Positions 1 through 64,000 of a stretch of DNA of 64,000 nt are shown here, piece by piece (within the stretch, counting starts at the first letter, position 1; each line of letters opens with the position of its first letter). The translations under genes were made by a program, and so were the position numbers. The notes beneath the pieces were generated by a model, which did no database searches, had not been told where the DNA came from, and worked only from the letters and a program-made list of their open reading frames with translations. Origin of the DNA: Minisyncoccota bacterium (lineage in GTDB: Bacteria > Patescibacteriota > Minisyncoccia > Phycocordibacterales > SBAW01); NCBI GenBank assembly GCA_035546615.1, contig DASZWM010000005.1, positions 40,959-104,958 of the forward strand, written 5' to 3'.

Positions 1-51
1 GCTCGAAGACGGGAGCGGGGACTATTTTTTTAAGCAGGCGTTTCATAGTAA

Positions 52-648: not shown

Positions 649-672
649 GTAGTATTAGAGTACTATCTTCGC

Positions 673-915
673 ATGGCAATTACCAAATCCGCCAAGAAAG
701 CCCACCGCCAAAGCCTTCGCCGGAAGGTTATGAACGATGCGCGCAAGGACGCTTTGCGCGGGGCATTCAAGGGTATCCGCACGGCGGCCAAGGGTGACAC
801 CAAGGCTATCGCGGCGGCATACAAGGCTATCGATAAGGCGCTCAAGGGCGGCCTTATCAAGAAGAACACTGCCGCTCGCCGCAAATCAAAGGTTGCGCGG
901 GCGCTTAAGGCCTAA
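673..915 (+). CDS. rpsT: 30S ribosomal protein S20
   Basis: 80-aa highly basic Ala/Lys-rich ORF (AKKAHRQSLRRK..., NTAARRKSKVARALKA) matching bS20. Confidence 0.85.
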   Translation: MAITKSAKKAHRQSLRRKVMNDARKDALRGAFKGIRTAAKGDTKAIAAAYKAIDKALKGGLIKKNTAARRKSKVARALKA

Positions 916-930
916 CTCTTTAGGCCACCC

Positions 931-1002
931 CCTCTCGTCGTTCAATGGATAGGACGCCTCCCTCCGAAGGAGGCGATGCAGGTTCGATTCCTGCCGAGAG
1001 GA
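931..1002 (+). tRNA. tRNA-Arg (anticodon CCG)
   Basis: Manual cloverleaf: acceptor cctctcg/cgagagg, D-arm gttc-aatggata-ggac, anticodon stem cctcc/ggagg with loop ctCCGaa, T-arm gcagg-ttcgatt-cctgc; no encoded CCA. Confidence 0.8.
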
Positions 1003-1125
1003 CAAATTTCACGAAGTGAAATGTGCCTCTCGGAGCGCGCCAACTGCTTGGCGCGAGTAAGGAATCGAAAGGCTTTTCGTTGCTTCGTCTAATAAAGTCG
1101 AAAAGCACCCGCGACGGGAGTCGAG

Positions 1126-1147
1126 ATTCCTGCCGAGAGGACAAATT
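1126..1147 (+). repeat. Direct repeat of the tRNA-Arg 3' end (~23 nt, gattcctgccgagaggacaaatt), att-like
   Basis: Exact ~23-nt copy of tRNA-Arg T-arm 3' half, acceptor 3' strand and the following 6 nt (986-1007) recurring 140 bp downstream, immediately upstream of the first giant-protein gene. Confidence 0.7.
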
Positions 1148-1173
1148 GTGCATAAACAGCCTGGCGGAAAAAA

Positions 1174-4540: not shown

Positions 4541-4688
4541 GACGCAAGTATACTGTCTCCGCGCTGACCCTGCTTGCGGCATCCTTGCTGCCGGCATTCG
4601 GGCAGGCGTTCGTCTATTTCTGCAAACAGTCCTCCCGCCTCGGGGGCCTGGGCCGCATCCAGCGACGGCGAGAGGAGAGCCGAAGGCG

Positions 4689-4702
4689 TTTCCTGCCGAG
4701 AG
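4689..4702 (+). repeat. Degenerate third copy of the tRNA-Arg 3'-end repeat (tttcctgccgagag ... gacaaaat)
   Basis: 13-14 nt identical to the tRNA-Arg 3' region, followed after an 8-nt insertion by gacaaaat; sits directly upstream of the second giant-protein gene. Confidence 0.45.
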
Positions 4703-4757
4703 AACGGATTTTGTGGACAAAATATTATGTAGCGAATTCTCGGGGTAGTATAGAAGA

Positions 4758-7700: not shown

Positions 7701-8594
7701 GGGGGCGGCGGGTGCCGCTCATCCATTGCCGCTCCGGGCGGTAACGGCGGTTTGTATGGCGGCGGAGGCGGCTCCGGCGGAGGCAGCCAGAGCAATGAAG
7801 GAGTCGGGGCTCAGGGCATTATCGTAATCAAATATACCTCAACCGGCGACCCTCTTGAGGCTACCGCTATCAATTGCGACTCGGGATGCGATTCACAGGA
7901 CGGTGATACTGTTAACTGTAACCTTGTTGCTCCTCCCAATCCGCCGGCGGCTCCTGATCCAAACTGTTGGCGGAAACCCGATGCGACAAAGACGTATACC
8001 TTTACGCCGGCATCAGCAGACGCGGGAAAGACGTTTGTATTTTCCGCACAGGCAAAAACTTTTAACTACATCAACTATAACGGCTACGCTACCGTGCAGG
8101 TGCGGGTATGCCCGATCGGTCAGGGAACGGACGGCAACGGCGGATGTATTGCGGACGCATGCACCAACAATATCGTATTCCCAGGCAGCCAGACGACAGT
8201 ACCCGCAGGATGTACGGGTAATCCGGACAATACGTGCAGCGTGCCCACCGGCTATGCGTTCAACGGCGCGGCCTGCGTCCCTTCAGCTCCGTCGGTTCCG
8301 ACCCTTAGCCAAAACTCATTTACCGCCACCCGCGTACGTATGGGGGCGGCATCGACGCTTTCATGGAACATACCGGGTATGGCGAGCGGCATTACATGCG
8401 ATATCAGTCCTGCGGATAAATTGCAGAGCCCGATGCCTGCCTGGACAAGCGGCTCTACTTGGATCGGCTCGGTACAGACGACCAGCATATACGGGCCCAC
8501 CAAATATACGCTCACGTGCACTAACAGCACGACCGACCCGCCGGCCACCCGCAGCGTCATCGTCAACATCATCCCTGCGTATCAGGAGATATAG
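4758..8594 (+). CDS. Giant secreted glycine-rich surface protein (paralog 2) with two Gly-rich beta-solenoid-like modules, Cys-rich middle region and conserved C-terminal IPAYQEI domain
   Basis: 1278-aa ORF with GTG start; signal peptide MSFKCLKKYFFLLPLLVFIGPAPFVMA; Gly-rich module (TWPVPSDWN..NI.VI..GGGGG...GGGGGGYSK.TNI.L....VTYR...G...G.IVI.Y) duplicated at ~4896-5643 and ~7100-7840; middle and C-terminal regions homologous to the 1174-3003 protein. Confidence 0.75.
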   Translation: MSFKCLKKYFFLLPLLVFIGPAPFVMAAPTFQVGPIYLTTTSASNQTWPVPSDWNNASNIVQVIAAGGGGGGVASNTTGSGGGGGGGGYSKSTNITLSGSSVTYRLAPGGAGGGSSAAVAGGDAWFNGTTCAAASVCAKGGGAGGAGTGGGGGAAGAGGPATGGVASGTGSIKNNGGAGGAGTGVSAGGGGGGAGGPNAAGGTGNRTNGGQGDGTAGGAGGMTSLIRAASAGSPGTEFSSSPAYGSGGGGGGSRYAADAAAGGTYGAGGGGAFAASSGTLRRGGAGAPGLIVINYSAPLTVSITAPTNSGNACIGTPGAFTISRNGPATWPAVPVDLIYGGSGSTAAAGIDYSAAATTVTIPANTMSITLPITALQKTSGGSTTLKATIAASSAYSVGTPASATIVINNGTPAIETVAPYTIAPFAAYPLPYNGYIYHQNGGSGYTNPFATPASILNTWISNSPSPQLCGANGGTAGISLPSDTAQGVCMGPNFSGTVAGTRVAVLQAVAQTAGIPPVNVGLDLTNVKKTNPCNTSTTHWAYATAPTQNTPAATLKVPKYTPVQFSYQCLPNQNYVWFNAACQGAYIISCLSWTLVTDGDLNVQTADRAWYKGTETANLIDSSTQTFSNSQSVTLQCGGYQPQEGIPANGGSPPAASSGTAPTGGSYTVYGMQNPSYRQPQIQVDVQTCSDPTAIVQGGACVPCNTVTSGSYRSGNTCVLYPPPTATIQANNAGFQAADSSGNKNGKLVSVGAGQQVTVAATYAGSTNQTQKTVFITAAGSGVWTVPSDWNSANNSIEVIGGGGTAAFTGGRGGGGGGGAYSKKTNISLTPGAPVTYRVGQGAAQGSPAAPGDDTFFNRTAGSSNTCADTVSVCAKGGNSGNGNNGGAGGAASGGVGTVKYSGGAGAYGDNNNSGNGGGAGGPNGNGQAGDSGGAGDAGLGGAGSGCGNPPAAGGNGAEWIATNVWSGTAYTGATPTGGSGGGGGCRSSIAAPGGNGGLYGGGGGSGGGSQSNEGVGAQGIIVIKYTSTGDPLEATAINCDSGCDSQDGDTVNCNLVAPPNPPAAPDPNCWRKPDATKTYTFTPASADAGKTFVFSAQAKTFNYINYNGYATVQVRVCPIGQGTDGNGGCIADACTNNIVFPGSQTTVPAGCTGNPDNTCSVPTGYAFNGAACVPSAPSVPTLSQNSFTATRVRMGAASTLSWNIPGMASGITCDISPADKLQSPMPAWTSGSTWIGSVQTTSIYGPTKYTLTCTNSTTDPPATRSVIVNIIPAYQEI

Positions 8595-8634
8595 CGGGAG
8601 GAGGAATTTTGCTCCGCTTAGCACACAAGCGCAA

Positions 8635-8658
8635 AACCTGCCGCAGGGCAGGTTGTTG
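8635..8658. terminator. Bidirectional rho-independent terminator
   Basis: Hairpin cctgccgcagggcagg followed by ttgttg; lies between the 3' end of the giant-protein gene and the 3' end of the minus-strand tRNA-Arg. Confidence 0.55.
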
Positions 8659-8667
8659 CGTCTAGTG

Positions 8668-8739
8668 TGCTCCCGGTAGGAATCGAACCTACATCACGAA
8701 CTCCGCAAGCTCGTGTCCTATCCATTGAACGACGGGAGC
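8668..8739 (-). tRNA. tRNA-Arg (anticodon read as GCG)
   Basis: Reverse-complement cloverleaf: acceptor gctcccg/cgggagc, D-arm identical to the 931 tRNA (gttc-aatggata-ggac), anticodon stem cgagc/gttcg (one G-U) with loop ttGCGga, T-arm gtagg-ttcgatt-cctac. Confidence 0.7.
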
Positions 8740-8781
8740 GCTCAATAACTCCTTGAGCTTACAACGAAAATTAGCTTTTTT

Positions 8782-9252
8782 CTAGAGGCCGAAGATCTCG
8801 GCTACGTGCTCGCCCACGTGCGGGCCCTGCTCCTCTTCCTGCACCCGGGTTTTGAGATGCTCGCGCACGTCGGCGCCCTGCTGGGCGCTGTCGAGTATCA
8901 AAGAGAAGTGGGGAGCAAGAACTCCGCGCATTGTCATGAAAAGCCGGGGATTTTCCTGGTCATGCTCGACCCAGAACGTGTGTATGGCTGAATAGGGGTA
9001 GCGCGTGCCGTCTACCGACAGGCCGCGGTCGTCCATATGGACCGAGTGCTCGCGGGGGCCGCGCGCGGCGAGAAAGCCTATCGACAGCGCGCCTATTGCG
9101 ATAATAACGGCGAAAAGAAAGTTGCCGAAGAATACCGCAGCTACTCCGCCCGCGAGCGCGATAACGCCCAAGCCCCAGTACCAGTCGGTGCTGCGCTCGC
9201 GGTGCTCGTGCGTCGTAACGCTCCATTCCATGCGCTCCGTAGTGCCTGGCAT
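8782..9252 (-). CDS. Hypothetical small membrane protein (2 TM)
   Basis: 156-aa ORF with two adjacent hydrophobic helices (GLGVIALAGGVAAVFFGNFLFAVIIAIGALSIGFLAA); no recognisable family. Confidence 0.5.
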   Translation of the reverse strand: MPGTTERMEWSVTTHEHRERSTDWYWGLGVIALAGGVAAVFFGNFLFAVIIAIGALSIGFLAARGPREHSVHMDDRGLSVDGTRYPYSAIHTFWVEHDQENPRLFMTMRGVLAPHFSLILDSAQQGADVREHLKTRVQEEEQGPHVGEHVAEIFGL

Positions 9253-9296
9253 ATCGTCTTCAGTATACCATCACGCAACTGGTATACTTTTAAGAT

Positions 9297-10109
9297 ATGA
9301 AGACAATCAAACTAAACGAGGATGCGAATATCCCCGTGCTCGGCCTGGGCACGTGGCAGCTGACGGGGGATGCGTGCACGGAAGCCGTCCGCTACGCGCT
9401 TGAGCTCGGCTACACGCATATCGATACCGCCGATGTGTATGGTAATCATGCGGAAGTGGCGAGCGGCGCTAAAGCCTCCGGCGTCGCACGGGAGAAGTTC
9501 TTCCTTACCACCAAGGTGTGGCGCACCGACTTGGCGCACGACCCGCTTGTGGAGAGCGCGGACCGCTTTCTTGAAGAGCTCGCTACCGACTATATCGACC
9601 TCCTCCTTATTCACTGGCCTAACAGCGAGATTCCTGTCGAGGCCAGTCTTAGGGCGATGGAGGAGCTTAAGCGCGCCGGAAAGGTGCGCGCGATAGGCGT
9701 TTCTAACTTTACTGTTCATCACCTTAAGGACGCACTTGAAGCCGGGGTTGAAATAACCAACAACCAAGTAGAGATACGTCCCGCCTTCGCGCAAAAAGAA
9801 CTGCGTGATTTCTGTGCTTCCAAGGATATTTCCGTAACCGCGTACTCGAGCCTGCGCGGCGGTGCTAATGAATTGCCGCTTATCGTGGAATTGGCAGGGA
9901 AGTACGGCAAGACTGCTTCGCAGATAATCCTCAACTGGGTTGTGGCTCGCGGCATGATAGCGATACCTAAGAGCTCGCACCCGGAGCGCATTAAAGAGAA
10001 TTTCGAGTCAGTAGATTTCGAAATGGAAGAAGCGGACCTCGCGCGCATAGATGCGCTGCCGGAAGGGAAGCGGGTTAATACGCCGGCCTTCGGGGAATTC
10101 GATTATTGA
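9297..10109 (+). CDS. Aldo/keto reductase (2,5-diketo-D-gluconate reductase-like)
   Basis: 270-aa ORF; AKR signatures LGLGTWQ, IDTADVYGNH, LLLIHWP, IGVSNF. Confidence 0.85.
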   Translation: MKTIKLNEDANIPVLGLGTWQLTGDACTEAVRYALELGYTHIDTADVYGNHAEVASGAKASGVAREKFFLTTKVWRTDLAHDPLVESADRFLEELATDYIDLLLIHWPNSEIPVEASLRAMEELKRAGKVRAIGVSNFTVHHLKDALEAGVEITNNQVEIRPAFAQKELRDFCASKDISVTAYSSLRGGANELPLIVELAGKYGKTASQIILNWVVARGMIAIPKSSHPERIKENFESVDFEMEEADLARIDALPEGKRVNTPAFGEFDY

Positions 10110-10583
10110 GAAAAGTTTTTGCCGATGGCATTCCACGGCAGTTTCATGCCTGATTCCGGAAACTTGTCGAGAATCCATTGTACGTAAGTATTACTGTTGG
10201 GACCACGCAAGCCGTATTTCTCTTTAAAAGGATATTGATCTACAGAAGAAGTAATACAGTCAGCCATTCGCTCCGCAGTGGAACCATCTGCACCTTCGAC
10301 AGTATCTACTATTGCAGAATTCCAGTGGAAGTAATGAACAAAAGCGAATGTCTGTATCCCGTCGGTAGGGGAAAGTAAGTCTGCGTCGAGATGGCCCCAG
10401 CTTTTGTCGCGAATCTGTCGTCCGAATCCTATTTCCCAGCGTGATATAGCGCCTTTTTATTCACGACGAACCAAGGATGGATAGCAAAGTTAAAAGGGAT
10501 ACAGGCAGGACATGCAAAAAGAAATACCTGATATAAGTCTTTCTTTAAGAGTTTCTGGAACTCGGCTTCGGTCATATTTCCAA
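10104..10583 (-). pseudogene. Frameshifted hypothetical gene (two overlapping frames joined at an A5 run)
   Basis: Minus strand: frame a reads MTEAEFQKLLKKDLYQVFLFACPACIPFNFAIHPWFVVNKKALYHAGK* and frame b reads ...KGAISRWEIGFGRQIRDKSWGHLDADLL...NSNTYVQWILDKFPESGMKLPWNAIGKNFSQ*. The frames overlap by ~12 codons at the homopolymer aaaaa (plus ttttt 10454-10458), and a 1-nt shift there would give one ~160-aa protein. The region is AT-rich. Confidence 0.45.
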
Positions 10584-10587
10584 ACTT

Positions 10588-10675
10588 TGGCGGAGGGGGT
10601 GAGATTCGAACTCACGGTACCTTGCGGTACTCTTGTTTTCAAGACAAGTGCACTCGGCCTCTATGCGACCCCTCC
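10588..10675 (-). tRNA. tRNA-Ser (anticodon TGA), CCA encoded
   Basis: 88-nt class-II tRNA: acceptor ggagggg/cccctcc, anticodon stem cttgt/acaag with loop ctTGAaa, long variable arm taccgcaaggtacc, T-arm gtgag-ttcgaat-ctcac, 3' gCCA encoded. Confidence 0.8.
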
Positions 10676-11155
10676 CTGGCGATTTTGTATCTTACCACTG
10701 TACCAGTTATTTTCTAGGTAATGTTCCTCTGAGTGACAATTTGGACAAAGTAGTTCCAGGTTATCCAGCGTATTGTGTTGCCGGTTTCTGTCTTTGTGAT
10801 GTACGTTTAATATCTCATACCTTGCATATCCGCATCGTTCGCAAATGGGGCCTCGCAGTTTCAACAGACGAAGTTTCAAGCCTCGCTGGTATACAACTTT
10901 GTCCTTAGGCGCTCGACCTTTGTATTTTATTCCTGCACGGTTGGTATTGGCGCAGCCTCTGCTACATGTATTTTTGTTTGCACTAGAGAGAATAGGTTTA
11001 CCGCAGACAACACAAGGGTGTTCTTTTCGAGTAGCTAGTCCATAACAGGTTTGACTGCAAAATACTCGACCTTGTTTAATTTGACCCGGTCGTCTATAGA
11101 TTGGTTTGCCACAAACTGTGCATGCAGTATTGGGATTTCTTTTATACTCATCCAC
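10661..11155 (-). CDS. HNH endonuclease with Cys4 zinc-ribbon motifs
   Basis: 164-aa ORF; HNH motif NVHHKDRNRQHNTLDNLELLCPNCHSEEH plus three CxxC pairs. AT-rich; the 3' end overlaps the tRNA-Ser 5' end by ~15 nt. Confidence 0.75.
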   Translation of the reverse strand: MDEYKRNPNTACTVCGKPIYRRPGQIKQGRVFCSQTCYGLATRKEHPCVVCGKPILSSANKNTCSRGCANTNRAGIKYKGRAPKDKVVYQRGLKLRLLKLRGPICERCGYARYEILNVHHKDRNRQHNTLDNLELLCPNCHSEEHYLENNWYSGKIQNRQGGVA

Positions 11156-11214
11156 TAATCCAGTATACCAATTCTTAGTATGGCAGGCAATACACTTTTT
11201 CCTGTCCGTAGGCT

Positions 11215-11889
11215 ATGCTCGAAGGGAACATGGATATCCAGATTGAGCGGCTGAAGAAAAATATAGACAAATTACAGAAGACGCATGGCCACCCGGACTA
11301 TACAGCCTTGTACGGGACTGGCTGTATCGATCATCCGGACCTTTTTCTTATTCTTATGAATCCGACCGCACGCAATATATCCGTGCACAAGGATTGGAAG
11401 GGTCTTAAGGCTTCCTGGCTCGGGACAAAGAACTTTTGGAAGATACTCTATAAACTCGAACTGATCTCGGCCAAAACTTTTGCAGCTACCCAGGAACGCG
11501 CCCCGGCCGAATGGGACAATGATTTCTGCGTCGCGGTGTATACGGAGCTGGCGCGCAACAAGGTTTTTATCACCAACTTAGGCCGTTCAACCCAGCCTGA
11601 CGCTCGACCACTCCCTGACGCGGTATATAAAGCGTGCGTTGCGCTCACCCAGGAAGAGATAAACGCAGTGAAGCCTAAAGTGGTCGTTCTCTTCGGGAAT
11701 CAAGTAAGCTCAGCTTTGCTTGAAACACCGATCAAGGTTTCTGAAACCCGCAAGAAACGTTTTGATCTTGAGATAGGCGGTACGGTGTATCCCGTATATG
11801 CCACCTATTACCCGGTCGGCATGGGATTTATGAATGCCGATAAGACGATCGAAGATGTTCGCTGGATTCGCAAGGCGCATTCACGATAG
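11215..11889 (+). CDS. Uracil-DNA glycosylase superfamily protein (putative)
   Basis: 224-aa ORF; motif-1-like LILMNPTARN (xNP motif as in MUG/SMUG families) and C-terminal YYPVGMG at the position of the HPS-type motif 2; VVVLFGNQ core. Confidence 0.45.
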   Translation: MLEGNMDIQIERLKKNIDKLQKTHGHPDYTALYGTGCIDHPDLFLILMNPTARNISVHKDWKGLKASWLGTKNFWKILYKLELISAKTFAATQERAPAEWDNDFCVAVYTELARNKVFITNLGRSTQPDARPLPDAVYKACVALTQEEINAVKPKVVVLFGNQVSSALLETPIKVSETRKKRFDLEIGGTVYPVYATYYPVGMGFMNADKTIEDVRWIRKAHSR

Positions 11890-11900
11890 ACTTACTTAGC

Positions 11901-12323
11901 ATGAAATATCTCGGCATAGATTACGGGACCAAGCGCATCGGCGTAGCTGTCTCTGATGATGGGGGCGTGGTAGCATTTCCCCTCACGACCCTGAAGAGCG
12001 ATAGGGACGCGGCAGGGGAGGTTGCCGCGCTTGCCAAGAGCCGCGAGGTCGGAACAATCGTCATCGGCGAGTCTCGCAATTTTCAGAACGAGCCCAACCC
12101 TGTGATGGAGGATATTGAGCAGTTCAAAAAAGACATTGCCAACCTGACAGGTCTGCCTGTGGAATACGAACGGGAGTTTTTTACCAGCACGCAGGCGGCG
12201 CGGCAGTTTGCGCCCGACGGCTCGCGCAAAGACAATCCTTCGCAGGAAAAGCTGGATGCATCGGCTGCAGCCTTGATTTTACAGGGGTATTTAGACAGAA
12301 TAGGTGCTAAGAAGCCCATATAG
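11901..12323 (+). CDS. ruvX: Holliday junction resolvase-like YqgF/RuvX
   Basis: 140-aa ORF; N-terminal LGIDYGTKRIGVAVSD and IVIGES motifs typical of YqgF. Confidence 0.8.
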   Translation: MKYLGIDYGTKRIGVAVSDDGGVVAFPLTTLKSDRDAAGEVAALAKSREVGTIVIGESRNFQNEPNPVMEDIEQFKKDIANLTGLPVEYEREFFTSTQAARQFAPDGSRKDNPSQEKLDASAAALILQGYLDRIGAKKPI

Positions 12324-12325
12324 TC

Positions 12326-12375
12326 GTCGCTCGCTCGGAAATTAAAGTAAAACTTTATTTCTCTCACTCGCTAGA
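12326..12375 (+). repeat. Dispersed ~50-nt repeat copy R1 (tcggaaattaaagtaaaactttatttctctcactc core with internal hairpin)
   Basis: Near-identical to the reverse complement of 26521-26570 and related to 13302-13350; hairpin gaaattaaagt-aaa-actttatttc; lies ~15 nt upstream of the start of the 12388 ORF. Confidence 0.6.
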
Positions 12376-12387
12376 CTATTAAAAACA

Positions 12388-12717
12388 ATGGAACCAATTA
12401 GCATAGACGATTTCAAAAAGATAGAGATCCGCATCGGAGAGATAAAGAGCGCGGAGAAGATAGAAGGGAGCGACAAGCTCCTGAAGCTTAAGGTTATGTT
12501 CGGCGAAGAAGAGCGTCAGGTGCTTTCCGGCATCTCGGCGTATTTTCCCAACCCGGAGGACTTGGTGGGGAAGAAGTGCCCGTTCGTTACCAACCTGGCG
12601 CCGCGCACCATGATGGGGCTTGAGAGCCAGGCGATGATATTGGCAACCGGCGGCGACGGCGAAACGCCGTTCGCTCTGTTCGAAACCTCGGGCGCTTCCG
12701 GCGCGCGCGTCCGCTAA
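12388..12717 (+). CDS. tRNA-binding protein (CsaA/Trbp111-like; equivalent of the MetRS C-terminal domain)
   Basis: 109-aa ORF; OB-fold tRNA-binding signature (IRIGEIKSAEKIEGSDKLLKLKVMFGEEERQVLSG, CPFVTNLAPRTMMGLESQAMIL). Confidence 0.7.
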   Translation: MEPISIDDFKKIEIRIGEIKSAEKIEGSDKLLKLKVMFGEEERQVLSGISAYFPNPEDLVGKKCPFVTNLAPRTMMGLESQAMILATGGDGETPFALFETSGASGARVR

Positions 12718-12720
12718 TTC

Positions 12721-13311
12721 ATGCTTGAGCGACTGCATGAGTGGAAGGATTCTGCATGGCAGAAATTCATAGTGCTGGCGCAAGGCCCGCATGCGCTCTT
12801 CTGGCTCGGCGTATGCGCGCTGACCGATCCGATATTCTTTCCCATACCGCCGGAGGCATACCTTGCCGCGCTGATCTTGGCTCACCCCAAACGTTTTAAT
12901 CTATATTTGGGTATTGCCGCCGTCTTTTCGGTACTGGGTGCGGCACTCGGCTATTTTGTAGGAGCATTTGTATTCCACCAGTTCGGGATGCCGCTCCTCC
13001 ATTTCTATCACCTGGAGCCCGCATTCCTGCAGGCGCAGGAGCTTATAAAGGGCGGCGTGTTCGTCGGCATGATATTGGTGGCCTTCCAGCTGATTCCGGA
13101 GAAGGTATTCGTGCTCGCGGCGGGCTTCTTGGGAGCGCCGTTCTTTCCGTTTTTAGCGGGATTCCTGGTGGGCCGCGTGGCGCGTCTTGCCCTTATCGCA
13201 TATCTCACGAAACGGTTCGGCGCGGACGTAGTGCTGCTTATAAAGCGGTACTTCCTCGCCGCGACTGTTTTGTTCTTGCTCGCAATAGCGTATTATTTCC
13301 TAGTGAAGTGA
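12721..13311 (+). CDS. DedA/YqaA-family membrane protein
   Basis: 196-aa multi-TM ORF; DPIFFPIPPEAYLAALI motif of SNARE-associated/YqaA proteins. Confidence 0.6.
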   Translation: MLERLHEWKDSAWQKFIVLAQGPHALFWLGVCALTDPIFFPIPPEAYLAALILAHPKRFNLYLGIAAVFSVLGAALGYFVGAFVFHQFGMPLLHFYHLEPAFLQAQELIKGGVFVGMILVAFQLIPEKVFVLAAGFLGAPFFPFLAGFLVGRVARLALIAYLTKRFGADVVLLIKRYFLAATVLFLLAIAYYFLVK

Positions 13312-13350
13312 GTGAAGGAAAGCTCGCTTTATTTCCGAACGAAAGGACGG
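13302..13350 (+). repeat. Dispersed repeat copy R2 (agtgaagtgagtgaa...hairpin...ttccgaacgaaagga)
   Basis: Shares the 15-nt agtgaagtgagtgaa and ttccgaacgaa(a)gga blocks with 26521-26570, with a different central hairpin; overlaps the stop codon of the 12721-13311 gene. Confidence 0.55.
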
Positions 13351-13416
13351 AAATATGAATGTACTCGTTCATATGCTATTGTGCATTTCCGCCTGCTGCT
13401 TTTGTAGGGGGACAAT

Positions 13417-13488
13417 GCCTTCGTAGCTCAACGGATAGAGCCGCGCTCTTCTAAGGCGTTGATGTAGGTTCGATTCCTACCGAAGGCA
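13417..13488 (+). tRNA. tRNA-Arg (anticodon TCT)
   Basis: Acceptor gccttcg/cgaaggc, D-arm gctc-aacggata-gagc, anticodon loop ctTCTaa (stem with two G-U pairs), T-arm tagg-ttcgatt-ccta. Confidence 0.75.
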
Positions 13489-13605
13489 CAAATAGTGCGG
13501 GGCACTATTTGTGAGCCGCAGGCGCGACGGCGCCGAGGCGGGGTCGCGGAAATTTTCAGCAGAAAATTATCTGTGACCAAATAGCGGAGAATAAGATAAC
13601 AGCAC

Positions 13606-13678
13606 GGGCGATTAGCTCAGTTGGTAGAGCAACTCTTTTACACAGAGAAGGTCACAGGTTCGAGTCCTGTATCGCCCA
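13606..13678 (+). tRNA. tRNA-Val (anticodon TAC)
   Basis: Acceptor gggcgat/atcgccc, D-arm gctc-agttggta-gagc, anticodon loop ttTACac, T-arm acagg-ttcgagt-cctgt. Confidence 0.75.
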
Positions 13679-13682
13679 CACT

Positions 13683-14354
13683 ATGGAAGGTCCTGCCAAA
13701 CCCAGTAACAACACTAAGGAAAGCTCTCCTAAGCCTTCTGTTGAAGTTGAATCAGAGTTTGCCGAATTCGTGCCACAGGACTTCCTTAATGACCCTGTAG
13801 GATATTTTGAACGTGGAGGAAAGAATATAAAAACAGGAGAAGTTAAATATGATGAGGCTGGTGCGCTTCGTGAGGATCCAACTGCTGTAAAAGATTTACC
13901 AGTCTGGACGAATAGCAATGGAATAGAAATTCTTACGGTAGGAAGAAGGGTAAATACGATTAAGGGCGCTGTAGGAGAATCAGGAGATCCTTTCTACGAG
14001 TACAAAATCCTTGAGAAGCTTATGGAAATCGGGTTACCCGCTGCGAGGCCTATTGCGAAAGCAGAACAGGGCGGTACTCATATCATTGTCATGGAGCGTA
14101 TTCCGGGGGTTAGGTGGTCTGAAAGAGAAAGTCTGAATCTCAAAGAAAAAGGATACTCTGACGAAGACATTGCAACTCTAATAAGTGAAGCAGAACAGAA
14201 AATGGATGGCCTGAAAACTCGCTTTGACGAAGCGGGAGTTATTCGCAGTTGGAAACTGAAGGATATGGTATTTGAGATAGACATTGAGAATAAGAAAGTT
14301 ATTTCTATAGTCCCCACAGATTGGGAAAGGACGAAGATTATTGAAAAGCAATAG
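13683..14354 (+). CDS. Hypothetical protein, possible small atypical protein-kinase-like fold
   Basis: 223-aa ORF in an AT-rich stretch; motifs in kinase order (EYKILEKLMEIGLPAARPI, hinge-like HIIVMERIPG, then DMVFEIDIENKKVISIVPTDWE) resemble RIO/Kdo-type kinases; weak. Confidence 0.3.
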   Translation: MEGPAKPSNNTKESSPKPSVEVESEFAEFVPQDFLNDPVGYFERGGKNIKTGEVKYDEAGALREDPTAVKDLPVWTNSNGIEILTVGRRVNTIKGAVGESGDPFYEYKILEKLMEIGLPAARPIAKAEQGGTHIIVMERIPGVRWSERESLNLKEKGYSDEDIATLISEAEQKMDGLKTRFDEAGVIRSWKLKDMVFEIDIENKKVISIVPTDWERTKIIEKQ

Positions 14355-14405
14355 AGGTTCTAATATCGTGTACTTCTGACCACAGAAGACGTCTTTATTC
14401 AAGTC

Positions 14406-15140
14406 TTGTGCTATAACACTTCCATGGAGCCGACAGTTATATATGAAGACGATTCCGTTATCGTCGTTAACAAGCCATCGGGCCTGCCTGTGCATGCGGA
14501 CGGACGGCATGACCGCGCCACGCTTGTGGACTGGCTCGCCGTGCACTATCCGGAACTCAAAGGAGTGGGGGAGGAGCAGCGGCTCGCCGACGGCACGATA
14601 ATAGACCGGCCCGGCATCGTGCACCGCATCGACCGCGAGACGTCCGGCGTGCTTGTCGTGGCGCGCACGCAGGCGTCTTTTGAGCATTTAAAGGAGCAGT
14701 TCCAGAACAGGGAAGTGAGAAAGGTGTACCGCGCCTTCGTGTACGGCGCCCTTAAAGACGAGCGCGGCACGATAGACAGGCCGATAGGCTCCTCGCGCGG
14801 AGGCCACGGTCCGCGTTCGGCGACGCGCCCGCACGGTGTCATGCGCGAAGCGCAGACGCTCTACCGCGTCATACATAACGGCAAGGACGCCGCATATGTG
14901 GAGGCGTTTCCGAAAACCGGCCGCACGCACCAGATCCGCGTGCATTTCTCCGCCATTCAGCATCCGATAGTAAATGACACTTTGTATGCGCCCAGCCGCA
15001 AGCCGATACTGGGCTTCACCCGGCTCGCGCTCCACGCGTATTCCATCTCCTTTATCCATCCCGACGGGCGGGAGGTCCTTTTTGAGGCTCCGCTGCCGGC
15101 CGATTTTGCCGAAGCCGAGCGGCAATTGCGGGCTAATTAA
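14406..15140 (+). CDS. RluA-family pseudouridine synthase
   Basis: 244-aa ORF; catalytic motif HRIDRETSGVLVVART, PSGLPVH substrate-binding motif; no N-terminal S4 domain; the start may be the downstream Met (MEPTV). Confidence 0.8.
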   Translation: MCYNTSMEPTVIYEDDSVIVVNKPSGLPVHADGRHDRATLVDWLAVHYPELKGVGEEQRLADGTIIDRPGIVHRIDRETSGVLVVARTQASFEHLKEQFQNREVRKVYRAFVYGALKDERGTIDRPIGSSRGGHGPRSATRPHGVMREAQTLYRVIHNGKDAAYVEAFPKTGRTHQIRVHFSAIQHPIVNDTLYAPSRKPILGFTRLALHAYSISFIHPDGREVLFEAPLPADFAEAERQLRAN

Positions 15141-15172
15141 AGCCGTGTTAGAGTGTTCAGGCATTAAATCAT

Positions 15173-15676
15173 ATGAAATCCGCAGTTAAAATCTCTCCGG
15201 TCGACATGGAAGCCCGCGTAGCCCTTGGGGTGCGTCCGGGCGATACTGTCCGTGTCTGGCAGAAGATAGTCGAGCTCAAGAAGGGCAAGGCAGCCAATAA
15301 GAAGGAGGTGACGACGAAAAATGTCCGCCGCCAGGCCTTTGAGGGCCTCGTGCTCGCGGTTAAGCACGGCTCCGAGGCGGGAGGCATGTTCACGGTCCGC
15401 CGGGTCGCTTCCGGCGTAGGTGTCGAGAAGATTTTCCCGCTCTATTCTCCCAATATCGAATCTATCGAGGTACTGCGCCGCACCCGCACCCGCCGCGCAA
15501 AGCTCTACTTCATCCGCGACAAGGCCGCCCGCGACCAGAAGCGCGCGATGCGCAAGGCCCGCGAGTATGTCGCCCCCGCGGCAGCGGCAGCCGACGCCGA
15601 AGTTCCCGCGGAAGAGCCTGTTGTTGAGGCTCCGGCTGCAGAGGAGGCTGCCGCTCCGGAAGTCGCAGCGGAATAA
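15173..15676 (+). CDS. rplS: 50S ribosomal protein L19
   Basis: 167-aa ORF; bL19 core ([12 protein letters not shown]...[12 protein letters not shown]...FTVRRV...[18 protein letters not shown]) with Ala/Glu-rich C-terminal extension. Confidence 0.85.
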
Positions 15677-15734
15677 GAAAACGAGCTCACGCTCGTTTTT
15701 CGTTTTGGCGTTTTCGTTGTAGGTTTATAGACAT

Positions 15735-15818
15735 GCCCAGGTGGCGAAATTGGTAGACGCACTACCTTGAGGTGGTAGCTCCCGCAAGGGATTGGAGGTT
15801 CGAGTCCTCTCCTGGGCA
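15735..15818 (+). tRNA. tRNA-Leu (anticodon GAG)
   Basis: 84-nt class-II tRNA: acceptor gcccagg/cctgggc, anticodon stem ctacc/ggtag with loop ttGAGgt, long variable arm, T-arm ggagg-ttcgagt-cctct. Confidence 0.8.
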
Positions 15819-15827
15819 CAAAAAAGA

Positions 15828-15866
15828 CAGAATAATCTGCCCTGCGGCAGATTATCTGCTTTTTGT
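15828..15866 (+). terminator. Rho-independent terminator after tRNA-Leu
   Basis: 13-bp hairpin cagaataatctgcc-ctgc-ggcagattatctg followed by cttttt. Confidence 0.7.
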
Positions 15867-16020
15867 GAGCCGGAGCGATGTTTCGCGAGTACGCGAAACC
15901 GCGAGGCAGGGTCGTGCGGCCGCATTCGCGACGGCGAATGCGGAACGCCTGACCAAAAGGATTTGTAGATGTGACGCAGACCCTAGATTAAGGGTATTTC
16001 CGACGGTTCCCACGGAGGTC

Positions 16021-16049
16021 TTGACAAAGTACCCGAAAGGGTATACACT
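16021..16049 (+). promoter_or_regulatory. Sigma70-like promoter (TTGACA-17-TACACT)
   Basis: Consensus -35 TTGACA, 17-nt spacer and -10 tacact (a tatact follows); ~330 nt upstream of the TerC-family gene. Confidence 0.5.
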
Positions 16050-16382
16050 ATACTTAGTTGTGAGGGAGCCAGCCTACGGTGTGTCATCGTGCACCGAAGG
16101 TGGGACCGGAAAGTGGCAACCTCGCGCCGGGACGATCGCAAAAGTCCCTTCTGTTCTTTCAGCGCGGAACGCGCAACGTGGTCTACTGTTTAGATGGTCT
16201 TGGGTCGCGAGGAGGTCAAAAATAACCCGCGACACTGCAAAAGTGATTGGCAATCTCAATCATGAAGGACCGTCACACGTAAGAATGGAAAAACCAAGGT
16301 CCTCGGACCAGTGGCCCCCCAGCACAACTGCATTGACAGTTGAGTGGGGGCCTTTTTACATTCAATGTAGTATTCTGTAACA

Positions 16383-17384
16383 ATGAAACTTTTCATCGCC
16401 CCCATCGTCATTTCGTTCATAGCGCTTATCGCCGTATTCCTGTGGGGCGGTACGGCAGCCCTGCTTCTTGCCGCAACGCTGGCGGTGCTCGAAGTGACGC
16501 TTTCTTTCGACAACGCGGTCGTCAACGCGAAGGTGCTCGAGGAAATGGACGCGCGCTGGCAGCGCAGGTTCCTTACCTGGGGCATCATCCTTTCGGTATT
16601 CGGCACGCGCCTGGTGCTGCCGATACTTATCGTCAGCGCCGTGGCATTTACTTCGCCGTTCACCATTACGACGCTGGCCCTCTACGAGCCCGACCAGTAT
16701 TCTGCGCTTCTTACTTCGGCCGAGGCGGCTATCAAGGCGTTCGGCGGCGCATTCCTGCTCATGGTGTCGCTCAAGTATTTCTTCGACGTCGGCAAGAGCG
16801 TGCACTGGTTCGCGCCGCTTGAGCGCCGCTTGTCGCGGTGGGGAAGGGTGGAGGCGATTGAGATCGCTTTGGCGCTCGCCATGCTGCTCGGCATCTCCTA
16901 CGTGTCGCACGACTCGGTTGAGACGATACTCCATGCCGGCATTATCGGCATCATCCTCTTTACGCTGACGGAAGGCATCGCGCACGGCCTCGGGGTGGAA
17001 ACCAAAGGCGCGGTCCGCTCGGGCCTCATGCTCTTCGTCTATCTCAATATCCTCGACTCGGCCTTTTCTCTGGACGGCGTCATCGGCGCGTTCGCGCTCA
17101 CGACCTCGCTCCCGATAATCGTGGCGGGCCTTGGCATCGGCGCGTATTTCGTCCGCTCGCTCACGGTCTACCTGGTACGACAGAAGACGCTTGCGGCGTT
17201 GAAGTACCTGGAGCACGGCGCGCACTGGGCGATATTCGGCCTGGCGCTCTCGATGTTCGCCGGCCTGATAATCCGCGTGCCGGAAGTGGTGATAGCGGGC
17301 ATTGGGCTCGGCTTCATCACGCTTGCGTACATTTCGTCCCGCCGCGCCCTGCGCGCGGACGAAGTGGCCGAGTCGCTCGGCTAG
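16383..17384 (+). CDS. TerC/DUF475-family integral membrane protein
   Basis: 333-aa multi-TM ORF; LSFDNAVVNA motif (TerC-family LSxDNA), repeated internal halves. Confidence 0.7.
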   Translation: MKLFIAPIVISFIALIAVFLWGGTAALLLAATLAVLEVTLSFDNAVVNAKVLEEMDARWQRRFLTWGIILSVFGTRLVLPILIVSAVAFTSPFTITTLALYEPDQYSALLTSAEAAIKAFGGAFLLMVSLKYFFDVGKSVHWFAPLERRLSRWGRVEAIEIALALAMLLGISYVSHDSVETILHAGIIGIILFTLTEGIAHGLGVETKGAVRSGLMLFVYLNILDSAFSLDGVIGAFALTTSLPIIVAGLGIGAYFVRSLTVYLVRQKTLAALKYLEHGAHWAIFGLALSMFAGLIIRVPEVVIAGIGLGFITLAYISSRRALRADEVAESLG

Positions 17385-17428
17385 CCTCATCGCTTCTCCT
17401 TTGGTATATTGACTTCGTTGTTCGATAT

Positions 17429-17502
17429 GGTGGTCGTAGCTCAATCGGTAGAGCCCTGGTTTGTGGTACCAGTTGTTGTGGGTTCGAGTCCCATCGACCA
17501 CC
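17429..17502 (+). tRNA. tRNA-His (anticodon GTG) with genomically encoded G-1
   Basis: Acceptor gtggtcg/cgaccac, extra 5' G (17429) opposite discriminator C, anticodon stem ctggt/accag with loop ttGTGgt, T-arm gtggg-ttcgagt-cccat. Confidence 0.8.
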
Positions 17503-17506
17503 CAAG

Positions 17507-18040
17507 ATGGAGGAATTTAAAAAATCTAAGGAAGCCGCGACAAGGAGCCTCAACCTTGCCGGCACTTTGCAGAAGCTTTTTCGCCCTGTCCTGATTAAAG
17601 GCATGGAGGGCGAAAAAACAGAGGATCCGATAGCTCGAGTAATAGCGGAAGCAGGCCCTAAAAACCTAAGCGATATAGAATCGTATCTTACAGCGCAGAG
17701 CATTGATGCCCTTGCTCCTCTTGAGCACGGCTATGGCTTTAGTGCCGTAGTGCTTGACGCAGGCGATCGGGTGGTGCGCTTAAGCAGACTGAAGCCTACG
17801 CATAAACCCGGTATTCCCCTTGTCCTCCAGCCTCTTGCGGAGGAAATAGTGGGAAAAATTTCTGTGCAGATCTTCAAAAAGCTTCAGACGGCGGGAATTA
17901 CGGACGCCGATGTACAGAATGTTAAGGACCAATTGGGGATGGAAGGGTATAGGTGGGATGACGCCGGTACCGACAACCTTGGGCGGGACGAGAACGGCCA
18001 ACTTTTTATACTCGACGGTTCGGTGCATACACTCGCATGA
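17507..18040 (+). CDS. Hypothetical protein, possible small kinase-like fold
   Basis: 177-aa ORF starting 4 nt after tRNA-His; YGFSAVVLDAGDRVVRLSRL (Gly-loop and Lys-like) ... DAGTDNLGRDENGQLFILDGS (D..N catalytic-loop-like and DFG-like) in kinase order; weak. Confidence 0.3.
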   Translation: MEEFKKSKEAATRSLNLAGTLQKLFRPVLIKGMEGEKTEDPIARVIAEAGPKNLSDIESYLTAQSIDALAPLEHGYGFSAVVLDAGDRVVRLSRLKPTHKPGIPLVLQPLAEEIVGKISVQIFKKLQTAGITDADVQNVKDQLGMEGYRWDDAGTDNLGRDENGQLFILDGSVHTLA

Positions 18041-19236
18041 GCAATGCTCCCATAACCTTCGTTATCTTCGGCGCCACGGGCGATCTGGCTCAGCGCAAGA
18101 TAGTGCCCGCGCTCTGCGCGCTGTACGCAAGCGGGGCGCTTCCTGAAGGCTCAGATATAGTCGCTTTTTCGCGCCGGCCGTGGGGCGACGCGGAGTATCG
18201 CTCCTTCATACAGCCCTCCCTCAAGGCTTTTCCGGAAGAAAAGGCGGTTAAATTCCTGGAGCGTATCCGCTATGTGCAAGGTACGTTCGGCGATCCCGCA
18301 TCGTTCGCTGCATTGAAAGATGCATTACGCACGCAGAATATCTTCTTCCACCTCGCAGTCCAGCCTGAGTTTTACGAATCCATCGTGCATGGGCTGGGGG
18401 ATGCGGGCTTGCAGGGCTCGCTCCTTATCGAGAAGCCGTTCGGCCACAACTACGCCTCCGCCGCATCGCTTGAGCGAGGTCTTGAGAAGTACTTTTCGCC
18501 CGAGCATATTTTCCGCGTCGATCATTACTTGGGGAAGGAAGGACTCGAGGTGCTTCTGAATCGCCGCCGCACGGATGCCGATTTTGAAAAGTCACTAAGC
18601 AGCGAGCGCATCGCGTCCGTCGCGGTCCGCCTGCTTGAGACGTTCGACGTAGAGGGTAGGGGAGAGTTCTACGACGCGGCGGGCGCGCTTAAGGACGTGG
18701 GCCAAAATCATCTGCTTGAGATGCTCGCGACACTTCTTATGAATATTCCGGAAGATGCTCGCGGCATTCCGCAGGCGCGCGCTGAAGCGATAGCGGGACT
18801 GGCCCCGAAGATGTCCGTTCAGGGGGCGGTGGCTGCCGTGCGCGGCCAATACGAGGGGTACCATGCCGATCCGGAAATTCCGGACGGCTCGCAAACGGAA
18901 ACGTATTTTAAAGTCGAATTGCGCAGCGCAATTCCGCGCTGGCAGGATGTCCCGCTCGTGCTTGAAGCGGGGAAAGCCCTGCGCGAAAAGAAAAGCGATA
19001 TCGAGATCTCATATAAGGACGGCTCGAAGCAGGTATTCGACATGGATATCCCCGGCGCGCGCGACGCATACGAGCACATGATAGAAGCGGCACTGCGCGG
19101 CGACGCGACGCGCTTTGCCGGAAGCGAAGAAGTGTTCGCCGCGTGGAAGCTTATCGACCCGCTGCGGGAGCAGCTCCTGAAATTGCCGCTTCACAGGTAC
19201 GACCGCGGCGGCGACGGCGCGGGGCGGTTTTTGTAA
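18037..19236 (+). CDS. zwf: Glucose-6-phosphate 1-dehydrogenase (short form)
   Basis: 399-aa ORF; NADP-binding FVIFGATGDLAQRKIVPAL, substrate motifs EKPFGHNYASA and RVDHYLGKE. Confidence 0.8.
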   Translation: MSNAPITFVIFGATGDLAQRKIVPALCALYASGALPEGSDIVAFSRRPWGDAEYRSFIQPSLKAFPEEKAVKFLERIRYVQGTFGDPASFAALKDALRTQNIFFHLAVQPEFYESIVHGLGDAGLQGSLLIEKPFGHNYASAASLERGLEKYFSPEHIFRVDHYLGKEGLEVLLNRRRTDADFEKSLSSERIASVAVRLLETFDVEGRGEFYDAAGALKDVGQNHLLEMLATLLMNIPEDARGIPQARAEAIAGLAPKMSVQGAVAAVRGQYEGYHADPEIPDGSQTETYFKVELRSAIPRWQDVPLVLEAGKALREKKSDIEISYKDGSKQVFDMDIPGARDAYEHMIEAALRGDATRFAGSEEVFAAWKLIDPLREQLLKLPLHRYDRGGDGAGRFL

Positions 19237-19253
19237 AGTGATACAATTGCCGC

Positions 19254-19661
19254 ATGCCTATGCTGCCGAAGCCCAAAACCAAGCTTGAAGAGATAGCGCT
19301 CGGCTTTACCAGCTGGGTAGGGTCCATCCAGTCGGTCGCGGTGCATACCGTCGCCTTCGTCGCGAGCTTCCTGGCGGTGGCGTTCGACCTCATTACCTTC
19401 GACCGGATGCTCCTCGTGCTCACCACCGTAGTGTCGCTTGAAGCAATTTATCTCGCCATATTCATACAGATGAGCCTCAACCTGACGCGCGAAAGCCTGG
19501 CGGAGGTTGAGCAGGACATAGACGAGATCCAGGAGGACGTGGGCGAAATTCAGGAGGATGTCGACGAGATACAGCAGGACGTCGATGAGATCCAGGAAGA
19601 CGTTGACGAGATACAGGAGGAAATAGTAGAAGAGGAGGATGGAGAATCGGCGCATGCTTAA
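19254..19661 (+). CDS. Membrane protein (DUF1003-like) with acidic heptad-repeat tail
   Basis: 135-aa ORF; two TM helices, then five tandem 7-aa repeats D[IV][DG]EIQ[EQ]. Confidence 0.5.
   Translation: MPMLPKPKTKLEEIALGFTSWVGSIQSVAVHTVAFVASFLAVAFDLITFDRMLLVLTTVVSLEAIYLAIFIQMSLNLTRESLAEVEQDIDEIQEDVGEIQEDVDEIQQDVDEIQEDVDEIQEEIVEEEDGESAHA
19515..19619 (+). repeat. 5 x 21-nt tandem repeat (coding DIDEIQE heptads)
   Basis: gacatagacgagatccaggag / gacgtgggcgaaattcaggag / gatgtcgacgagatacagcag / gacgtcgatgagatccaggaa / gacgttgacgagatacaggag. Confidence 0.7.
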
Positions 19662-20079
19662 GGAAAAGGTCGGCGGCTTTTTTTCGGAGTTCAGGAACTT
19701 CGCCGTCAAAGGCAACGCCTTCGACCTCGCGGTCGCGGTCGTCATCGGCAACGCCTTTACCGCCATCGTGAACTCGCTCGTGGGCGACATCATCACCCCC
19801 TTCCTCGGGCTCGTGACCGGGAATGTTGACTTCAAGAGCCTCTCGTATGCGGTCCGGCCCGACCTCGTCATAAAATACGGCGCGTTCATCCAGGCGATAT
19901 TCAATTTCCTGCTCATTTCGCTGTCGATATTCGTCGTTTTCAAGCTGCTCTCGGTCGCGCGCAGAAAGGTCTTCCGCGAAGGGGAGAAGGCGGTGCCGGA
20001 GCACGAAAAGCCCGCTCAGGAGCGCCTCCTTGAGGAGATCCGCGACCTTTTGAAGGAAAAGAAGGAGGAAGTGGTATAG
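19639..20079 (+). CDS. mscL: Large-conductance mechanosensitive channel MscL
   Basis: 146-aa ORF; FREFAVKGNAFDLAVAVVIGNAF signature; the start is probably the downstream Met (MLKEK). Confidence 0.85.
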   Translation: MENRRMLKEKVGGFFSEFRNFAVKGNAFDLAVAVVIGNAFTAIVNSLVGDIITPFLGLVTGNVDFKSLSYAVRPDLVIKYGAFIQAIFNFLLISLSIFVVFKLLSVARRKVFREGEKAVPEHEKPAQERLLEEIRDLLKEKKEEVV

Positions 20080-61969: not shown

Positions 61970-62026
61970 AGCGGGCGCTTCTCGCTCAAGCAAAACGCCG
62001 CGCGGGAAACCGCGCGGCGTTTTGCT

Positions 62027-62842: not shown

Positions 62843-64000
<1,158 letters not shown>

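Follow-up and report, generated by a model that had tools for sequence, protein, structure and literature searches.

What fills the long spacer between a tRNA-Leu gene and a DUF475/TerC-family membrane protein gene in the genome of a Minisyncoccota bacterium? TerC-family genes are established riboswitch targets (yybP-ykoY), and the original prediction for this locus was that a promoter in the spacer drives a structured TerC leader, perhaps a riboswitch. Our analysis of the window (the whole stretch of 64,000 nucleotides in which the locus lies) leads to a different view: the spacer probably consists of two unrelated pieces, one after the other on the 3' side of tRNA-Leu, the first a copy of a structured element that we call the tRNA-flank element and the second an orphan insertion, and is not a TerC leader. 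The genes around the spacer are listed here.

14406-15140, plus strand: RluD-type pseudouridine synthase gene
15173-15676, plus strand: rplS (L19)
15735-15819, plus strand: tRNA-Leu(gag) (ARAGORN; Rfam tRNA model, 52.8 bits), with the tRNA-flank element beginning right at its 3' end
16383-17384, plus strand: DUF475/TerC-family membrane protein gene (Pfam PF04332)
17430-17503, plus strand: tRNA-His

From tRNA-Leu to DUF475/TerC the spacer (15861-16382) is non-coding and hairpin-rich. One frame is open from 15772 to 16380, starting within tRNA-Leu, and its translation found no match amongst 1.84 billion representative proteins (phmmer) or in Pfam. Taking the genome's own bias as the yardstick, neither codon bias nor GC3 periodicity is seen in any of the six frames. 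A protein-coding spacer was rejected on these grounds, in agreement with the original statement that no credible ORF lies between tRNA-Leu and TerC. The DUF475/TerC protein itself matches Pfam PF04332 (1.5e-86) and is 100% identical to a protein from a Candidatus Paceibacterota MAG.

Comparison with eight relatives whose TerC proteins are 78-90% identical (L081, L083, L084, L085, L087, L088 and two JGI contigs) reveals that the tRNA-Leu/TerC junction is variable, the gap between L19 and TerC being about 115-380 nt or else filled by unrelated DNA. The gap is 291 nt in L083 and 187 nt and ~379 nt in the two JGI contigs (the second value assumes the TerC start codon of the other relatives), whilst in L084 and L085 the TerC ATG lies ~20 nt past tRNA-Leu. 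L081 has a different upstream neighbour gene, 118 nt from TerC, and L087 and L088 carry an unrelated 1.8-kb island at the junction, bounded by ~60-nt repeats. Alignment of L083 to the window runs from 15701 to ~15956 and resumes at ~16363, so that the window carries ~400 bp extra, including the promoter, the folded stretch and the terminator listed below.

About 15961-16362, plus strand: lineage-specific insertion of ~400 bp (L083 alignment; short spacers in L081, L084, L085 and the two JGI contigs)
16021-16049, plus strand: sigma-70-type promoter match, TTGACA-17-TACACT (promoter scan; 10 of 12 positions)
16056-16357, plus strand: predicted orphan transcript of ~300 nt, from promoter to intrinsic terminator
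16313-16357, plus strand: intrinsic-terminator-like hairpin, GGCCCCC...GGGGGCC followed by UUUUU (MFE structure, inverted-repeat scan)

The insertion is absent from every related genome examined and has a GC content of ~52%, compared with ~60% in the flanking genes. Searches with blastn and nhmmer in sets of 80, then 88, then 208 loci found no homologue, and no match was seen in 1.48 Mb of fetched loci (mostly Patescibacteria), elsewhere in the window, or in phage and plasmid collections searched in distant mode. Three exact patterns gave no matches in viral contigs and one exact 24-mer gave none in a metagenome collection; these large collections were searched with exact 24-35-mers only, a procedure that diverged homologues would escape. 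The ends of the insertion display neither terminal inverted repeats nor clear target duplications, and no second copy of the tRNA-Leu 3' end is found near the spacer.

The promoter described originally at 16021-16049 was recovered by the scan at ten of twelve consensus positions. Its -35/-10 spacer is a palindrome, GTACCCGAAAGGGTAT, and AAGGGTAT is repeated at 15990-15997; amongst the promoter-like sites listed for window positions 1-20000 there are just two perfect TTGACA boxes, both of them in the spacer. Downstream, 16056-16358 folds on the plus strand at -115.7 kcal/mol with a z-score of -3.05 (-1.5 on the minus strand), although z-scores of around -3 and consensus boxes can also arise in non-functional DNA. 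The hairpin-rich folding that had been predicted for a ~330-nt leader is therefore present but a transcript starting at 16056 would not be a simple leader of that length, because a GC-rich hairpin followed by UUUUU stands 26 nt short of the TerC ATG.

On sequence grounds, the simplest reading of this strain- or species-specific insertion is that it represents a transcription unit for an orphan small RNA, or else what is left of such a unit of foreign origin. Its strong promoter match would give rise to a ~300-nt, well-folding non-coding RNA, with the intrinsic terminator halting transcription before TerC is reached. Like a small-RNA gene it possesses a promoter and an intrinsic terminator of its own on one strand of non-coding DNA, both of them consensus matches, and neither the sequence nor the structure of 16056-16357 is conserved in the relatives. 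A serious if somewhat unlikely alternative is that the insertion is inert foreign debris, a decayed mobile-element or horizontally acquired fragment whose signals are remnants or chance matches and which yields no functional RNA. That it is unique to one lineage, lower in GC than its surroundings and without demonstrable conservation would fit such an origin, as would its position at a junction that in L087 and L088 has received an island flanked by repeats. Debris would not, however, readily account for two perfect TTGACA boxes with well-spaced -10 boxes and a canonical terminator, all in the proper order on one strand, nor for the strand asymmetry of the folding energy.

The piece adjoining tRNA-Leu, by contrast, is conserved. 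The 95 nt from 15867 onwards, 5' of the promoter, align with L083 and display compensatory changes, and similar sequences are found elsewhere in L081 and L085. The stretch 15861-16055 folds with a z-score of -4.5. Comparative covariation analysis, which had been proposed for the whole spacer, thus has nothing to work on between promoter and terminator (a segment that the relatives lack) and gives a strong signal for 15864-15960. The suggestion that the spacer might harbour a divergent element or an independent sRNA is correct insofar as a covarying structured element is present; it lies upstream of the promoter (15864-15960, with a hairpin from 15821), however, and belongs to the tRNA rather than to TerC. 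Its parts, and a second copy in the window, are as follows.

15821-15864, plus strand: P0 hairpin of the element, with a CUGC loop (fold, terminator scan)
15864-15960, plus strand: core of the element (covariance model R3, 75.2 bits, E=1.5e-18; aligned to L083, L081 and L085)
15953-15959, plus strand: 3' strand of the closing helix P1, CAAAAGG (complementarity of flanks)
13490-13584, plus strand: second copy of the element, between tRNA-Arg(tct) and tRNA-Val(tac) (covariance model R3, 64.8 bits, E=1.2e-15)

In our structural model the element opens with a long hairpin whose loop is often CUGC and continues as a three-way junction of P1, Domain A and Domain B. In P0 an A-run (15821-15826) pairs with a U-run (15859-15864) around a GC-rich stem (15833-15841/15846-15854) that is capped by the CUGC tetraloop (15842-15845). 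This hairpin, which had been described as the tRNA-Leu terminator, is itself a part of the conserved element. Domain A comprises two short helices (15869-15871/15905-15907 and 15875-15877/15900-15902) and a hairpin (15880-15887/15892-15899); Domain B has a base (15910-15914/15950-15954) and a hairpin (15920-15929/15934-15943) with a GACG loop. The U-run at 15859-15865 is predicted to pair either with CAAAAGG at 15953-15959, closing P1, or with the A-run at 15821-15826, two pairings that would be mutually exclusive. In the second copy, too, a hairpin (13491-13515) leads into the core (13510-13584), and 21 nt separate its end from tRNA-Val.

Across the family, Domain A consists of two 3-bp helices round a small conserved internal loop, followed by a variable hairpin, and Domain B of a ~20-bp hairpin whose base is conserved (GGGGUCGCG / UGUGACC) and which contains a bulged A and two fixed G.U pairs; its loop is often GACG(G). 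P1 is supported by the complementarity of the 5' and 3' flanks, the complementary run averaging 5.65 in 147 copies as compared with 4.73±0.10 for shuffled partners. A CUGC-tetraloop hairpin of at least 5 bp is found no more than 80 nt 5' of the core in 41 of 146 copies and 3' of the core in none of the 146; a near-identical P0 hairpin follows tRNA-Val in L085.

Covariation in the family is strong. The copies in the window and in L083, which occupy the same tRNA-Leu/TerC site, differ by at least eight compensatory double changes, and a covariance model made from the first copies found additional copies in L001 and L011. An alignment of seven sequences has 95.7% of its cells paired and two-sided changes at 21 of the 32 pairs, a result reached by none of 500 shuffles (slid controls are ~37% paired). 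With 99 sequences the values are 94.7% and 30 of 32, slid partners being 36-44% paired. A degenerate core pattern matched at least 120 metagenome stretches against an estimated ~18 expected by chance, and the metagenome copies come from loci among the matches listed for that pattern. In all, 153 covariance-model matches were collected, 146 of them from metagenome loci of the pattern search. Most copies were thus retrieved by a pattern that fixes 22 conserved positions, so that the conservation of those columns is partly imposed; the selection did not extend to the covarying stems or to the tRNA context. The R3 model was built only from the 99 metagenome copies, with the window excluded, and it nonetheless gives 75.2 bits for the window copy at 15864-15960 and 64.8 bits for the one at 13510-13584.

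The conserved core is common to divergent lineages, in loci ranging from 42 to 70% GC. Rfam 15 has no family at the positions of the element in 37 loci, a literature search found no description of it and a paper on tRNA group I introns in Patescibacteria (PMC13011429) makes no mention of it. The family is thus strongly covarying, widespread in Patescibacteria and absent from Rfam 15, and is apparently undescribed. The K-turn, group II domain V, T-box, hammerhead and attC box were considered by eye as readings of the motif and dropped because the consensus does not fit.

Where are the copies located? In 97 of the 153 cases there is a tRNA or tmRNA gene on the same strand within 150 nt upstream, typically at 37-70 nt; in the window the distances are 44 nt from tRNA-Leu and 20 nt from tRNA-Arg. 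The other 56 comprise ten that follow another copy, 16 that are cut off by contig ends and 30 located elsewhere, several of which lie 10-43 nt 5' of a tRNA-Ser. About 20% of copies have no adjacent detected tRNA, and L083 has a further copy, partial at the end of its locus, that follows rplK. Many isoacceptors, as well as tmRNA, are followed by the element. The ten largest neighbouring protein families are PilM, RluD-type, L19, IF-2, UppS, SmpB, RuvX, SpoU, Hsp20 and one unknown family. Viral contigs are not enriched for the element, with two matches.

The DNA following the copies displays a second regularity. Of 98 cases, 35 have the tRNA's final 15 nt repeated immediately 3' of the element, mostly as exact copies. 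The direct repeat usually starts in the T-loop and stops a few bases beyond the tRNA end, can amount to 18-26 nt of the tRNA 3' end, has a period of 126-217 nt and leaves the intact tRNA on the left; more than 15 tRNA species are targeted in this way, each with its own matching repeat. The window copies are of a 'short' type with flanking repeats of just 6-7 nt (CAAAAG, CAAATAG), and no second copies of the tRNA-Leu, Arg, Val or His 3' ends are found between window positions 13000 and 18500. Tandem arrays occur, L132 having four copies together with an internal duplicate of the tRNA-Gly 3' end, and the same tRNA sites are filled in some genomes and empty in close relatives. The ends of the element bear no terminal inverted repeats, and amongst the collected copies there are neither larger, gene-carrying versions nor a recombinase or integrase gene that recurs next to the element.

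The first piece of the spacer (15821-15960) would therefore be one copy of a multi-copy Patescibacteria element whose copies always have the orientation of a tRNA or tmRNA gene and usually lie directly downstream of it. The reading to which we commit ourselves, on comparative sequence evidence, is that tRNA and element share a transcript, in which the element is a trailer or an inter-tRNA spacer, and that the element is gained or lost as an insertion-like unit at tRNA 3' ends. Co-transcription is proposed because several copies end just 5-21 nt before the next tRNA, leaving no room for a promoter, so that they would have to be transcribed within the precursor. The direct repeats, the tandem arrays and the patchy occupation of orthologous sites suggest that tRNA 3' ends are the target of the unit. 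On the other side, co-orientation, inclusion in the precursor, strand-specific G.U pairs (seen on the tRNA strand, in the basal part of Domain B, in 6/7 and 4/7 of the copies that were not pattern-selected) and the compensatory changes point to selection on the structure of the RNA strand. Both an insertion-like unit and a selected RNA fit these observations, and both may hold. The variable stems contain 40 G.U pairs (1.6%) and 23 A.C pairs in 2,484 cells, a low G.U content that is compatible with either.

Could the element be first and foremost an RNA module that serves the host, and not a selfish insertion? As such it might serve tRNA 3' maturation or precursor cleavage, insulate the tRNA from the downstream gene or act as a protein-binding small RNA. 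This would account for its being always on the tRNA strand and, in copies lying just before the next tRNA, within the precursor; for the strand-specific G.U pairs and the compensatory changes at a single site shared with L083; and for the conserved sequences of the internal and hairpin loops. The trailer can also pair with the 3' end of its own tRNA, the complementarity averaging 4.37 as compared with 3.75±0.08 for shuffled partners. However, among loci that were retrieved by their TerC gene and not by the motif, roughly one tRNA in five carries the element, the orthologous tRNAs of close relatives do without it, the tandem arrays and tRNA-end direct repeats look to have been made by insertion and the variable stems contain little G.U. 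We consider a primarily host-serving RNA possible but on balance doubtful.

Alternatively, the element may be a DNA recombination site that folds as a single strand, in the manner of attC and CTX-type attP, and integrates at the tRNA T-loop or 3' end. In the CTX/IMEX mechanism, strand exchange takes place within the stem of the folded attP. The layout seen here (target, spacer, complement of the target, forked two-domain fold, target) resembles by analogy the product expected from such an exchange, the direct repeat from T-loop to tRNA end would correspond to a classic identity block of the T-loop type and the stems are nearly all Watson-Crick. Against this, no recombinase gene recurs and the neighbour families are housekeeping ones, the unit between the repeats is only 126-217 nt long and without cargo, no larger autonomous versions were seen in the loci collected, and most copies, both window copies included, lack a long repeat. 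Taken together, these points make integration of a folded single strand distinctly unlikely.

How does the tRNA-flank element compare with structured repeats and integrating elements that are already known? REP/BIME sequences and MITEs such as Correia, ERIC and RUP are miniature structured repeats of bacteria and, like the element, they are short, non-coding, multi-copy and intergenic, form hairpins whose structure is kept while the sequence varies, and display tandem clusters and presence/absence at orthologous sites. The element differs in being strictly co-oriented with, and adjoining, tRNA or tmRNA genes, in being a three-way junction without terminal inverted repeats rather than a simple palindrome, in having a core common to divergent lineages over so wide a range of GC content and in having a direct repeat that can be a long portion of the tRNA 3' end.

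Genetic elements that integrate in tRNA and tmRNA genes at the T-loop leave a duplicated tRNA 3' end, and here too there is a repeat from T-loop to tRNA end, an intact tRNA is left behind and tmRNA genes are used as well. In contrast to such elements, the 'island' in this case is a gene-free unit of 126-217 nt, serves more than 15 tRNA species and has no integrase recurring nearby. Integron attC sites and CTX-phage attP(+)/IMEX are folded single-stranded recombination sites that share with the element a structure conserved beyond the sequence, a strand-specific fold with fixed non-Watson-Crick positions and a forked hairpin whose stem repeats the target sequence; the element differs from them in lacking R'/R'' attC boxes and any Xer/dif or integron context, and its target, on this analogy, would be the tRNA end.

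At the RNA level the closest parallel is 3'ETS-leuZ of E. coli, a tRNA 3' external transcribed spacer RNA. Both are segments co-transcribed 3' of a tRNA and potentially freed by tRNA processing but the element forms a family of many copies, which keep a conserved fold and follow many different tRNAs, and we know of no base-pairing target or partner for it.

Tentatively, then, the element may represent an undescribed, Patescibacteria-specific class of miniature element that inserts in tRNA and tmRNA genes, either at the T-loop or at the 3' end, regenerates or duplicates the tRNA end, forms a three-way junction on the tRNA strand and acts as RNA or as single-stranded DNA, implying either a new targeting mechanism or a new function in tRNA precursors at the RNA level. 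Patescibacteria have very small genomes with little spare DNA, and yet many of their tRNA and tmRNA genes are followed by a folded element of ~140 nt. If it is mobile, it targets the most conserved hairpin in biology by an unfamiliar mechanism that leaves the gene intact; if it is a host RNA module, it would suggest that organisms with a reduced RNase set mature their tRNAs, or insulate their operons, by a step so far unrecognised. Either way it would be a new RNA or DNA family and a candidate addition to Rfam-type libraries.

Returning to TerC, the Rfam checks that had been proposed for the spacer gave no matches, either at the gathering threshold or at E<=10, whether for the yybP-ykoY covariance model (RF00080) or for the RNase P, tmRNA, 6S and SRP models. 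At E<=10, a cmscan covering 15600-16700 yielded nothing beyond the tRNA and two chance matches, which lie outside the segment. Rfam does detect RNase P RNA (L165) and tmRNA (L089) in related contigs; divergence of the lineage alone therefore does not explain its silence here, and it is unlikely that a housekeeping RNA has been overlooked in the segment. As identities for the spacer, RNase P, tmRNA, 6S and SRP were accordingly rejected. In common with loci bearing the yybP-ykoY riboswitch, a non-coding structured region and a terminator lie 5' of a TerC-family gene; unlike them, the spacer has no covariance-model match, the segment is not conserved 5' of orthologous genes and the gene, a DUF475 member (PF04332), has a conserved -10 box 6 nt from its start codon.

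Sequence comparison thus does not support a TerC riboswitch: the promoter-to-terminator segment has neither an Rfam match nor a counterpart in the related loci, the combination that the original prediction had itself named as counting against it. A promoter, a structured region and a terminator just before the ORF of a known class of riboswitch target do have the look of a transcriptional riboswitch, but that TerC is transcribed from 16021-16049, with 16313-16357 serving as a regulated attenuator under a ~260-nt upstream structured domain in a leader or novel riboswitch, is very unlikely given that the segment is missing from 8/8 related loci (one with a TerC identity of 90% or more), has no homologue in any collection searched and no Rfam match at E<=10, and that a -10-like box is conserved 6 nt from the TerC ATG, as in leaderless relatives. 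For annotation, this removes a false riboswitch candidate, and the hairpin labelled as a tRNA terminator becomes a piece of a larger conserved unit.

We propose that TerC is read instead from promoter signals of its own just 5' of the ATG, with a very short leader or none. Two candidates are present.

16333-16362, plus strand: candidate TerC promoter, TTGACA-18-TACATT (promoter scan), contributed by the insertion
16367-16376, plus strand: candidate TerC -10-like box, GTAGTATTCT, ancestral, 6 nt 5' of the ATG

The first makes use of the second TTGACA of the spacer, which the promoter scan places at 16333-16338 in the loop of the terminator-like hairpin. The second is kept 6 nt 5' of the TerC ATG in all relatives other than L081 and L083, and TerC therefore appears to be read from start-adjacent signals, almost leaderless; in L084, L085, L087 and L088 the distance of the box from the ATG equals that in the window.

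At the junction between tRNA-Leu and the gene for the TerC-family membrane protein, two of the loci fetched around related TerC proteins (L087 and L088) carry an island with two genes, one of the His_Phos_1 family and one encoding a HicB-like antitoxin. Direct repeats of ~60 nt (CCATTTGGTTAACAGAAAAACCGACAAGA...) border the island, so that the tRNA-Leu/TerC junction is an insertion hot spot. The island and the other features discussed here are as follows.

L087 1316-3000 and L088 540-1297: island of ~1.8 kb between tRNA-Leu and TerC
Window 13490-13584: second copy of the tRNA-flank element (the folded repeat found 3' of tRNA and tmRNA genes), filling the tRNA-Arg(tct)/tRNA-Val(tac) gap
L132 4532-5124, (-) strand: tandem array of four element copies after tRNA-Gly
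L083 8959-9002: element copy near rplK (L11), cut by the locus end
Window 16367-16385 region: GTAGTATTCT box, also just 5' of TerC in L084, L085, L087 and L088
Window 16108-16123 and 16238-16257: short internal repeat of the predicted orphan RNA

The second element copy in the window ends, at its 3' side, 21 nt upstream of tRNA-Val(tac). The corresponding tRNA-Arg/tRNA-Val gap is only 38-53 nt in L083 and L084, and in L085 no nucleotides separate the two genes. Genes for tmRNA are also followed by the element (L089 3108-3681, (-) strand, and L135); in L089 it begins 67 nt 3' of the tmRNA, which has smpB directly 5' of it. Within the tRNA-Gly array, copies 1 and 4 are near-identical, and a 21-nt exact duplicate of the tRNA-Gly 3' end (GATTCTCCCATCCCGCACAAA) separates copies 2 and 3. 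The truncated L083 copy starts 9 nt past the rplK stop codon, with no tRNA nearby, and a weak element-like match (E=0.21, window 61970-62033) lies directly 3' of an ORF.

In the window and in L084, L085, L087 and L088, GTAGTATTCT is kept 6 nt 5' of the TerC ATG and no Shine-Dalgarno sequence precedes that codon, which suggests that the TerC mRNA is leaderless or near-leaderless. The box lies just a few bases 3' of tRNA-Leu in L084 and L085.

The spacer of the predicted orphan RNA promoter (16021-16049) is formed by the palindrome GTACCCGAAAGGGTAT, and the half-site AAGGGTAT is present again 47 nt 5' of it, an arrangement (window 15990-16044) that looks like an operator for a putative DNA-binding protein. 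Inside the predicted transcript, AAAGUG(AUU)GGCAAYCUC and GCAAAAGU each occur twice, at the internal repeat.

The window also includes the start of a 23S rRNA gene (62835-64000). No 16S gene was detected in the 62.8 kb of the window preceding it, so the rRNA genes are possibly not linked. The fetched contigs hold other Rfam RNAs as well: a LOOT RNA (L191 339-459, (-) strand), a fluoride riboswitch (L122 795-880, (+) strand) and a class A RNase P RNA (L165 1800-2123, (-) strand).
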